NCBI GenBank assembly: GCA_029777855.1
Contig: JAKORL010000146.1
Location: 7,704 to 71,703 of the forward strand
Reading direction: 5' to 3'
From: Pseudomonadota bacterium
GTDB taxonomy: Bacteria; Pseudomonadota; Gammaproteobacteria; JAIEPX01
DNA: 64,000 nt
Positions 51,001 to 54,000 of the stretch are shown in pieces; positions within the stretch are counted from its first letter, which is position 1, and the number at the start of each line of letters is the position of its first letter. Made by a program: the position numbers.

Positions 51001-54000
51001 CATAATAAATGTTCGTATATGAGTATGATTGTATATTTTAATATTTCAATGGGGCAATCTAAAATTCCAAAGAATATTCCCAAGGCAATAGAGGGGTCAA
51101 AAAATAAATCGGCGCGTTCTAGAGTCGGGAGGCTTCCAATTAAATATGATCGTAAAACAGTAGGATACAGTGAGAATTTGTGGGGAATAATGAATGATGG
51201 AAAGTTGGCTGGATTAAGTCATAATTTATCGTGTCACGTTATTGATCCAATAAGCGGAGAAGTTAAACAAGACCTTATGTTGAATAGTGCAATGCCACAA
51301 TTTTCGTATTTTCAGCAGTTACATGTAAGCGCGTTGGTATTGCGCACTCGCTATATGGTGCTTGTGTCTTGTCAGTATTTGCACCTTATAGACTTGGATC
51401 CTTCTCGATATGAGCCTGAAAAAATAATTCTGCTACCTGAAGGCGGCGGCGTGGCAATGGCTGAACTCGATGATAATTGTTTTGCTGTAGGTTCGGGCAG
51501 TGGTCATGTCACAATTCATGATAGTGAATCAGGTCAAATAATTAAAATTTTTCCACCCAATGAAAAAATGCATAAAAGTACACAATGTGTAAGTCAGTTA
51601 GCAAAGCTACCGAATGATCGTTTGGCGTGTGGTTATAATGGTGGGGAAGTTGCTATTTGGGATATCAAAAGCAGCCGGTGTGTAGCAATTTTACATCCTT
51701 CAACGGATATTGATGTCTGCATTTATGATAGAAAAACTGGGAGAGAAGAAGCGATTACCTATCCTTCACTTGAAAAGGCAATTATTCCGGCTTATTCAGA
51801 AGATACTTTAGTCGGGGTACGCCCCGTTAAACATATACCTGGTGTATGGAAAGGTGGGAAACCACAAGGAACCGCGGCATCTTTAATGGTAAGCAAAGAA
51901 GGGAATCTATTTGTAGGATATGGAGATAAAACTATTGCGCTCTGGGATATGCGTTCGTATAAATTAATTAGAACGTATGTTGGTCATGACGGATGGCCGT
52001 ATGCATTAATGGCATTGCCTAACGGGCAATTGGTGAGTACAGGAGAGGATAAGACGCTGCGAGTATGGAATAAAGATGGATGTAAAAAAACACTCACTCT
52101 TACCCACCCCGGATTTTTTGCAAAAATAATAGGCAATAAAGTAATTGTGGCTGATCATCATAATTCTACTGAATTAGATCTTCAGGAGTTAATTGATACA
52201 GCTCAGACTAATCGCTGATCAATAATTGAATATGAGGGTTAATTATGACGACGAATCAACAAACTGTCGATTATATTCTAGAGCAGATGTCTGATGCAGG
52301 AAGAGTGAATGCAAAGAAAATGTTCGGTGGATATTGCGTTTATTGCGATGGAAAAATTGTTGCGCTCGTTTGTGATGACGAGCTTTTCGTAAAGAAAACG
52401 ACATCTGGTCAATCATATCTAGGAAAATGTCCTGAAAAACCACCTTATCCAGGAGCAAAGCCATATTTTTTTATTACAGGTGATCAATGGGAAGATGGCG
52501 AATGGCTTTCGCAACTAATCAAAATTACAACTCTCGAACTTCCAGTGCCCAAGAAAAAATAGATTCTGAGATATACAATAAATCTTGATCTTTAATTAAG
52601 ATGTGATAATAATGATTTTTTAAAGGGATTTTTTTCTATCAAGGAGGTTGAAAATGTTCAAGGAATTTAAACAATTTGCAATGCGCGGCAATGTTATTGA
52701 TATGGCAGTGGGTATTATTATTGGAGCTGCATTTGGGAAGATTGTGAGCTCTTTTGTCAGTGATGTATTAATGCCACCAATTGGACTGTTATTGGGAAAC
52801 GTCAATTTTTCCGATTTAAGTTTCGTATTAAAAGAAAAAACAGCTGAGCAAGCGGCAGTAGTAATTAAGTACGGTTCTTTCGTTAATACAATAATTGATT
52901 TTTTGATCATATCGTTTTCAATATTTATTGTTGTAAAACAGATTAATCGATTTATGCCTAAAGCACCTGCTGAACCTCAGACAACAAAGATGTGTGCATT
53001 TTGTAAAAGCACCATAAACATTGAAGCGACTAAATGTCCCCAGTGTACATCCAATTTGTCATGATGAATGATGCAATGAATGTCCTCGTATCTCAAGTTC
53101 TTAGTTCTTCGGTGGGATAGTGATTTAAGATAGCTGGTTATCTAATCTAAATCACTATTTTCTATTAGAAATGATGGTTGGTCATAGATTATTACAGATG
53201 TTTATAGTTTCAAATTCAGCTTGTGCGCTTCAAGCGCTCACCGGGATATATATTTATCATTTGAACAGAATTATAAGTGGTTATTTAGGGAGTATCGATG
53301 ATGATTTTTTTGAAGTACTAACACCTTGAGATACGAGGACATTTACCCTATCATAGCCATTGCTATGACATGTAAAAATTAACAAGGAGTAAATGTATGG
53401 AACAAAAAACACCTAGAGAAAGTATCCCGGAAGATTATCTCTGCACTATTACTGGGGAAGTTTTATTTGATCCCGTCGTCGTGGTTGAGAGTGGACATTC
53501 TTATGAGCGTGAGGCTATTTTGGGATGGTTTCAAAATCATAGCACAGACCCTCAAAGTCGTACGCCATTAGTTTCGAAAAATATCATTGACAATCATTCG
53601 TTAAAGCGCATTATACTCCAATATTTATCTAAGCATCCTCGCTGTTATCAAGATGAGGAAGTTTATATACCTATAAAATTAAAAGAAGATCTATTTAGGT
53701 CTATTCAAGAAACTGATGTTCGTTTGTATAGAGATTGTTTGTCTAAGCACCCTGGATTGTTATATGCTTCATTAAATTCAGAAGGAAAAACGTTGTGTGA
53801 ATTGCTTCTGATAAAGAATCATCAGGAAATGCTAGGGCAATTTTTATTGAAGTTATTGTCAACGGGAGAAAAGCAGTTTATTGAAGCATTGTCAACGTAT
53901 AAAAAGCATTATTATATTTTTTGTCTAATACTCGTTTTGTCAAAAGATGAATTGGCGCCAAAAGGGCTTCATATATTGTTATCTCAACTTGAGAAAGAAG

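Follow-up and report, generated by a model that had tools for sequence, protein, structure and literature searches.

A large-conductance mechanosensitive channel with a probable zinc ribbon in place of its cytoplasmic C-terminal helix

Few ion channels have been studied as closely as MscL, the osmotic emergency valve of the cell, which serves as a model for mechanosensation. An mscL gene on contig JAKORL010000146.1 of a Pseudomonadota bacterium (assembly GCA_029777855.1) raises the question of what may stand at the cytoplasmic end of such a channel, and to what purpose. A sequence-only reading of this gene had described a protein with transmembrane helices (TM1 and TM2) laid out as in Escherichia coli MscL, in which a four-cysteine CxxC-x10-CxxC tail takes the place of the usual C-terminal helix. 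We analyzed the 64,000-nucleotide stretch that holds the gene (contig positions 7,704 to 71,703, forward strand; here called the window, with all coordinates counted from its first letter). It is virtually certain that the gene encodes a real MscL with a zinc-ribbon-type tail, and the tail recurs in homologues from about 20 phyla. The features of the gene are as follows.

52654..53064, + strand: mscL coding sequence, 136 codons plus TGA (stop at 53062-53064), recognized as an open reading frame (ORF) and from profile and structure matches
52654..52953, + strand: canonical MscL core, residues 1-100, from Pfam, NCBIfam, the alignment with E. coli MscL and AlphaFold helices
52954..52983, + strand: Pro/Ala-rich cytoplasmic linker, residues 101-110, by alignment (E. 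coli MscL counterpart RKKEEPAAAPAP)
52984..53061, + strand: zinc-ribbon module, residues 111-136, from conservation, sub-threshold zinc-ribbon matches, AlphaFold and fold matches
52993-52995, 53002-53004, 53035-53037 and 53044-53046, + strand: the four Cys codons of the tail
52641..52647, + strand: Shine-Dalgarno sequence AAGGAGG, 6 nt before the ATG at 52654, read from the sequence
52585..52613, + strand: promoter-like TTGATC-17-AATAAT upstream of mscL, from a consensus scan (9/12 positions; weak)

A second TGA follows immediately 3' of the stop codon. The TTG at 52648 given as the start by the ORF finder was rejected in favour of the ATG at 52654 because it abuts the ribosome-binding site. 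Promoter-like sites found near mscL by the consensus scan are not clearly more numerous than expected from shuffled sequence.

The core of the protein is that of a canonical MscL. The Pfam family MscL (PF01741) matches residues 1-112 over model positions 1-110 of 123 (E 2.4e-42), with 144.6 bits against a cut-off of 27.4, and the models TIGR00220 (141 bits, cut-off 71) and NCBIfam NF001843 (165.4 bits, cut-off 142) agree. E. coli MscL, 43% identical overall, aligns in its known structures (PDB 9tiu and 28oa) to residues 2-108 only (E 4e-35). The core comprises the N-terminal amphipathic helix, TM1 with the gate motif, the periplasmic loop and TM2, and AlphaFold places helices at residues 2-11, 14-46 and 73-100. 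The TM1 gate motif GNV-D-AVG-IIG-AFG is present with its hydrophobic constriction residues; Met17 and Ile21 stand where E. coli has Leu19 and Val23, so that hydrophobicity is kept. Fourteen columns (F5, F8, A9, G12, N13, V14, D16, A18, V19, G20, G24, A26, F27 and G28) are invariant in E. coli MscL and 32 homologues. The E. coli-like layout of the membrane helices claimed from the sequence is thereby borne out.

The canonical C-terminal helix, in contrast, is genuinely missing, as had also been claimed: a control search showed that E. coli MscL spans the whole Pfam model from position 1 to 123, whereas the last 13 positions (111-123), which represent the cytoplasmic helix, are unmatched in the window protein. 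What follows the linker instead is a tail with the motif C114-x2-C117-x10-C128-x2-C131, after which the protein ends in TSNLS; the residue strings first quoted for this region occur exactly in the 136-residue product. The ribbon starts directly after the Pro/Ala-rich linker, and in the alignment its start is as far from TM2 as that of the helix in E. coli MscL; it therefore looks as though one small domain has been exchanged for another on the spot. Chance does not account for the motif, since the four cysteines are invariant in homologues and only two C4 motifs of the CxxC-x10-CxxC kind occur in all six frames of the window, the other one lying out of frame within a transketolase gene. The GC content of the tail is 0.37, compared to 0.38 for the window.

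A sequencing or frameshift artefact, which could have turned a canonical C-terminus into this tail, had been named as the finding that would undo the whole observation. Three-frame translation showed both other frames to be full of stops across 52930-53200, with no ..LLxEIRDLLK helix and no canonical C-terminus encoded in either. Two independent public assemblies encode exactly this protein next to the same upstream gene, and neither the frame nor any of the four cysteines is lost in orthologs that are 93% and 87% identical. In comparison with the 87% ortholog, tail codons 111-136 show 11.5 synonymous and 8.5 non-synonymous differences, corresponding to a non-synonymous proportion (pN) of 0.137 and a synonymous proportion (pS) of 0.719 (pN/pS about 0.19); the values for the core are 0.055 and 0.662. 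On this codon comparison the tail is shown to be translated and under purifying selection. Nothing beyond prior expectation favours a frameshift, a misassembly or gene decay, although broken tails do occur in a few database relatives (P0033, P0066, P0112) and in three frameshifted or truncated loci; with closed alternative frames, independent assemblies, constrained orthologs and the same tail in hundreds of homologues standing against it, the probability of this explanation is negligible. Of the broken cases, the 92%-identical relative P0033 (126 residues) diverges already in the linker, ahead of the ribbon, into an unrelated tail (..PKAISATNIIGLWRLERLAKSYLEV); it probably reflects a chimeric contig end or a frameshift in a short Logan contig. 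In two species-representative genomes (loci L048 and L120) the ribbon-tailed mscL is broken by a frameshift or internal deletion, representing either a pseudogene or an assembly error.

The question then is what the four-cysteine tail is. Weak matches to the zinc-ribbon families DZR and UPF0547 were obtained for 36 and 35 of 37 tails, respectively, the best with E 2.2e-05 and all of them below the gathering threshold. The window tail scores 13.8-15.8 bits with DZR (gathering 27.3), and the consensus tail scores 19.8 with DZR and 19.4 with UPF0547 (gathering 29). No dedicated model for the tail exists in Pfam (2025 copy) or NCBIfam, and none of the eight NCBIfam MscL models checked extends over it. 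An AlphaFold2 model of the last 34 residues, built with 36 homologous tails, has a mean predicted local distance difference test score (pLDDT) of 86, with 22 residues at 90 or above. It shows two knuckles and two short strands (model residues 9-11 and 18-20), the conserved T-K forming the first strand, which explains its conservation. When this model was compared to the PDB with Foldseek, a clear majority of the top 50 matches, including all the highest-ranked, were C4 zinc fingers or ribbons. Among them are RanBP2/NZF fingers, ribosomal protein L40e and the RadD ribbon, superimposed with a root-mean-square deviation of 0.8-1.2 Å over 23-26 residues, at a query-normalized TM-score of about 0.6 and E of 0.42 or more for this tiny domain. 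The tail is thus confidently predicted to fold as a two-knuckle C4 beta-ribbon, and it is probably a minimal C4 zinc ribbon.

Conservation of the tail among homologues, which the sequence-only reading had left to be seen, is extensive. A word-indexed search of 5.8 billion proteins was made with the window protein and the best 120 matches were taken; 116 of these carry the same tail module (62-100% identity, 98-100% coverage), with the consensus ..P-T-T-K-x-C-P-x-C-[FY]-[ST]-x-I-P-I-K-A-T-R-C-P-N-C-T-S-E-L. The four cysteines and Ala125 are invariant in 113 aligned homologues, and T111, K112, P115, I121, R127, P129, T132 and S133 are kept in at least 90% of them. The window protein itself deviates from the consensus at A115 and K127. 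The spacing of 10 between the knuckles is the same in every homologue of the alignment made with E. coli MscL.

So that the MscL core should not bias the taxonomic range, a hand-built degenerate DNA pattern of the tail alone (T-K-x-C-x2-C-x3-I-x3-A-x2-C-x2-C-T) was run against one genome of each GTDB species. At least 120 loci match. In 117 of the 120 matches listed, the pattern falls at the 3' terminus of an ORF whose core matches MscL significantly; in the other three, the mscL gene either runs off the stored locus or is disrupted by a frameshift or an internal deletion. As all of them lie at the 3' end of mscL, the signature was not found on any other protein among these 120 matches. Since T, K, I, A, T and the spacing of 10 are prescribed by the pattern itself, their conservation in this set is not independent evidence. 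Positions left free by the pattern are nevertheless conserved in the 120 loci: P after the first cysteine (91%), S/T two after the second (87%), R/K before the third (100%), and S two (90%) and L/V/I four (94%) residues after the fourth.

The carriers among these matches belong to about 20 phyla, including archaea and bacteria of the candidate phyla radiation. Bacillota are represented by Clostridium gasigenes, Paenibacillus, Pelosinus, Eubacterium oxidoreducens, Ruminococcus bicirculans and Veillonella, Myxococcota by Sorangium and Anaeromyxobacter, and the Alpha-, Beta- and Gammaproteobacteria by genera including Vitreoscilla and Pseudidiomarina. Further carriers belong to Acidobacteriota, Gemmatimonadota, Chloroflexota, Nitrospirota, Actinomycetota, Desulfobacterota, Armatimonadota, Elusimicrobiota and the candidate phyla radiation, and the archaeal ones to two lineages, Methanotrichaceae and Thermoplasmatota. 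When the C. gasigenes protein was used as the query instead, 118 of 120 matches proved to carry the tail, including RefSeq/UniRef entries from Clostridium botulinum, C. taeniosporum and Cellulosilyticum lentocellum, all annotated plainly as MscL. C. botulinum, C. gasigenes and Cellulosilyticum lentocellum are thus among the cultured, named carriers. A tail peculiar to one lineage can therefore be rejected: it marks a large subfamily of MscL that is old and crosses phyla. Many clostridial members (for example L012, L018, L068 and L106) have an acidic extension (..LEEEKE..) after the ribbon, reaching up to 29 residues past the last cysteine, which the window protein does not have.

The frequency of the ribbon was estimated with an exhaustive HMMER search of core residues 1-105 against 1.84 billion representatives of 50%-identity clusters, which gave 14,141 proteins at E ≤ 0.001. 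The best 150 of these comprise 14 with the ribbon and 59 with the canonical helix, the rest being fragments, frameshifted or chimeric metagenome calls and short tail-less forms. The ribbon is thus present in about one in five classifiable representatives, a rough figure because the sample covers only the nearest neighbourhood of the window core. On a neighbour-joining tree of the core the trait is clustered, requiring 22 parsimony changes compared to about 50 with shuffled labels. It is not monophyletic, and a single ribbon clade was rejected on this tree; with only about 100 conserved residues, repeated exchange of tails and poor resolution are inseparable. A third class of MscL ends shortly after TM2 (P0147, P0195, P0221, P0227, P0234-P0236, P0272 and P0284); some of its members are possibly fragments, and they apparently lack a C-terminal domain, as does the MscL of Methanosarcina acetivorans. 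At least three states of the MscL C-terminus may accordingly exist: a helix, a ribbon or no tail.

The genomic surroundings could hint at what the ribbon does. No conserved neighbour or partner gene was found around the 120 listed ribbon-tailed mscL loci, the next best family occurring in at most seven; the sole recurrent "family" proved to be an antisense shadow ORF inside mscL itself and was rejected. No second mscL copy is present in the window or beside the ribbon-tailed genes at the listed loci. The following genes were noted in the window.

52245-52562, + strand: TfoX_N-domain protein of 105 residues (E 2.4e-18), directly upstream of mscL
50023-52218, + strand: 731-residue protein, WD40 beta-propeller at the C-terminus, with WD40 matches of eukaryotic type
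53397-59699, + strand: 2100-residue protein, U-box at the N-terminus (E3 ubiquitin-ligase-like, E 3e-14) and behind it at least 13 blocks of ankyrin repeats
13395-19991, + strand: 2198-residue ORF with no clear Pfam domain and a borderline leucine-rich repeat match only
46696-48528, - strand: GlmS, 91% identical to a protein of "MAG: Gammaproteobacteria bacterium"

The TfoX_N-mscL pair is kept in all close relatives and is absent from distant ribbon-tailed mscL loci. The gene for the WD40 protein is conserved upstream of mscL in the 87% relative, and orthologs of the U-box/ankyrin protein occupy the same position in relatives. The U-box/ankyrin architecture is eukaryote-like and typical of effectors of intracellular or host-associated bacteria. 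GlmS is about 63% identical to proteins of Nitrosococcus and Ectothiorhodospiraceae, and its relatives place the window, by sequence identity, in an uncultured gammaproteobacterial lineage. An origin in Legionellales is unsupported by the named GlmS matches, though the neighbourhood is rich in eukaryote-like proteins.

What, then, might the ribbon do for the channel? The C-terminal domain is dispensable in the MscLs of E. coli, M. tuberculosis and M. acetivorans, and one proposal for the C-terminal helix is that it serves as a cytoplasmic sieve. According to the literature, tension gating does not require the domain, which M. acetivorans MscL naturally lacks; stabilization of the oligomer and tuning of sensitivity are among the roles proposed for the helix, and the role of the domain is called poorly understood (PMC6167328). 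The explanation we favour overall, with a probability somewhat better than even, is that the gene encodes a working large-conductance mechanosensitive channel of a ribbon-tailed subfamily, in which a zinc ribbon substitutes for the helix. The four cysteines of each subunit would, judging from the motif and the predicted fold, bind one metal ion, most likely Zn2+, turning the tail into a small rigid domain. Five such ribbons on flexible linkers would lie beneath the pore and could assume the accessory role of the helical bundle, stabilizing the assembled closed channel and partly screening its cytoplasmic exit. No new gating principle would be involved; tension gating like that of other MscLs is expected because the C-terminal domain is dispensable there. 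For this structural role of the ribbon as a cap, taken by itself, we put the chance at close to even or a little under.

Several observations weigh against this explanation. The zinc-ribbon profile matches all remain below gathering and the Foldseek E-values exceed 0.4 and are not significant, as is to be expected of a domain of only about 25 residues; we infer metal binding from the motif and the predicted fold only. Nothing shows contact between ribbons: the structural model is of a monomer, its quality at full length is poor (pLDDT 62, about 74 in the tail), and the place of the ribbon relative to the pore is undefined in it. No core column co-varies with the type of tail, except for the TTK motif that adjoins the ribbon; weaker signals in the periplasmic loop are probably phylogenetic. 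The sequences thus provide no evidence that the ribbon touches the channel body. Finally, surface residues are strictly conserved (R/K before the third cysteine, T-S after the fourth), which would fit a specific binding or regulatory role at least as well as a passive cap.

The suggestion made at the outset, that a metal-binding tail could alter pentamer assembly or gating, is a reasonable one, and it is possible, if doubtful, that the ribbon is a regulatory input, with a zinc-thiolate centre or a binding surface tuning or locking the valve in response to oxidative or metal stress or to a cytoplasmic partner. Regulatory readings stay alive because of the strictly conserved non-ligand surface residues, above all the basic residue before the third cysteine. 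One form of such an input would be a redox or metal switch: oxidants or metal depletion would release the metal from the Zn(Cys)4 site and allow disulfides to form within or between subunits, altering the gating threshold or the cytoplasmic sieve and coupling the osmotic valve to oxidative or metal stress. The four invariant cysteines occur in a family that is otherwise nearly cysteine-free (many canonical representatives have none), a flexible linker exposes the tail to the cytoplasm, and many carriers are anaerobes (Clostridia, Desulfobacterota, methanogens). However, aerobic or facultative carriers exist too (Sorangium, Pseudidiomarina, Paenibacillus, Vitreoscilla), the listed loci show no conserved redox-related neighbour gene, and most C4 zinc ribbons are purely structural, so that we regard a switch as unlikely.

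Alternatively, the ribbon could be a docking module that binds a cytoplasmic protein, a nucleic acid or anionic lipid head groups and thereby localizes, regulates or plugs the channel. Small C4 fingers, NZF and RanBP2 among them, often serve to bind protein or RNA, and ligand-binding fingers are the closest fold matches of the tail. Non-ligand residues (the invariably basic residue before the third cysteine, TTK, C-T-S) are conserved over about 20 phyla, and the restriction of the exact motif to MscL among the matches listed suggests co-evolution with something specific to the channel. Yet no neighbour gene is conserved at these loci, a partner would need to be universal across bacteria and archaea, and most of the conserved non-ligand residues stand at positions, hydrophobic or Ala, that are also conserved in generic short ribbons; since the TK is in addition a strand of the sheet, a structural explanation suffices, and docking seems rather improbable to us. 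A rubredoxin-like Fe(Cys)4 centre for electron transfer or iron sensing has in its favour the two rubredoxin-like CPxC-type knuckles, weak matches to zf-ChsH2 and Zn_ribbon_PF0610 ("rubredoxin-like zinc ribbon") and the many anaerobic hosts, but the knuckles are 10 residues apart rather than about 30, the post-knuckle Gly and the aromatic core are missing, and the best fold matches are zinc proteins. An iron site is accordingly very unlikely.

Ribbon-tailed MscL appears to be undescribed and its tail to lack annotation: no paper on such a tail was found in the full-text literature, subscription-only papers lying outside its coverage, and the tail is invisible in current annotation because neither Pfam nor NCBIfam has a model for it, although database curators may already have spotted the likeness. 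Its occurrence means that nature has repeatedly kept a different folded domain at the position of the MscL C-terminal domain, and channels with a helix, a ribbon or no tail amount to a natural experiment on the purpose of the cytoplasmic domain. With the tail, moreover, a channel that normally contains hardly any cysteine gains four reactive cysteines and a probable metal site, which raises the possibility that an osmotic safety valve of anaerobes and pathogens is controlled by redox state or metals. If the ribbon were a regulatory input, roughly one in five of the classifiable representatives sampled (14 ribbon vs. 59 helix among the nearest relatives of the core) would be dual-input channels responding to tension and to redox state or a ligand, among them those of Clostridium botulinum, gut Clostridia, Myxococcota and some archaea.

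Known systems resemble the tail to different degrees. The ribbons of Pfam clan CL0167 (DZR PF12773, UPF0547 PF10571 and Zn_Ribbon_1 PF13240) likewise have two CPxC knuckles about 10 residues apart, and share with the MscL tail a hydrophobic residue four after the second cysteine, an Ala three before the third and a hydrophobic residue four after the fourth. Unlike in these ribbons, the usual Gly after each knuckle is replaced in the MscL tail, which scores at most about 20 bits against thresholds of 27-29 and has its own signature, TTK-x-C...A-x-[RK]-C-P-x-C-T-S-x-L. RanBP2/NZF fingers, L40e and the RadD ribbon have the same minimal two-knuckle beta-ribbon fold as that predicted for the tail, but nothing indicates a common origin (E > 0.4; 20-40% identity across some 25 residues) and their ligand-binding residues are not shared. 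In rubredoxin, CxxCG and CPxCG stand about 30 residues apart around an aromatic core and bind Fe, whereas in the MscL tail the spacing is 10 and both the Gly and the aromatic core are absent. The C-terminal Cys4 centre of Hsp33 and RsrA are zinc-thiolate redox switches on stress-response proteins; they and the MscL tail are all cytoplasmic Cys4 sites, but motif and fold differ and the likeness is an analogy only.

The closest comparison remains that with other MscLs. Canonical MscL has the same N-terminal amphipathic helix, TM1 gate motif, periplasmic loop, TM2 and Pro-rich linker as the window protein, and continues into the ..EEVLLTEIRDLLK.. helix, which forms a five-helix cytoplasmic bundle, where the window protein has a 26-residue Cys4 ribbon. 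This helix is typical of the family but not obligatory: the MscL of M. acetivorans (PDB 4y7j and 4y7k) is a natural channel without it, which makes the C-terminal domain an optional accessory (PMC6167328). Whereas M. acetivorans MscL simply does without the domain, the window protein carries a different folded domain, as predicted, in its place.

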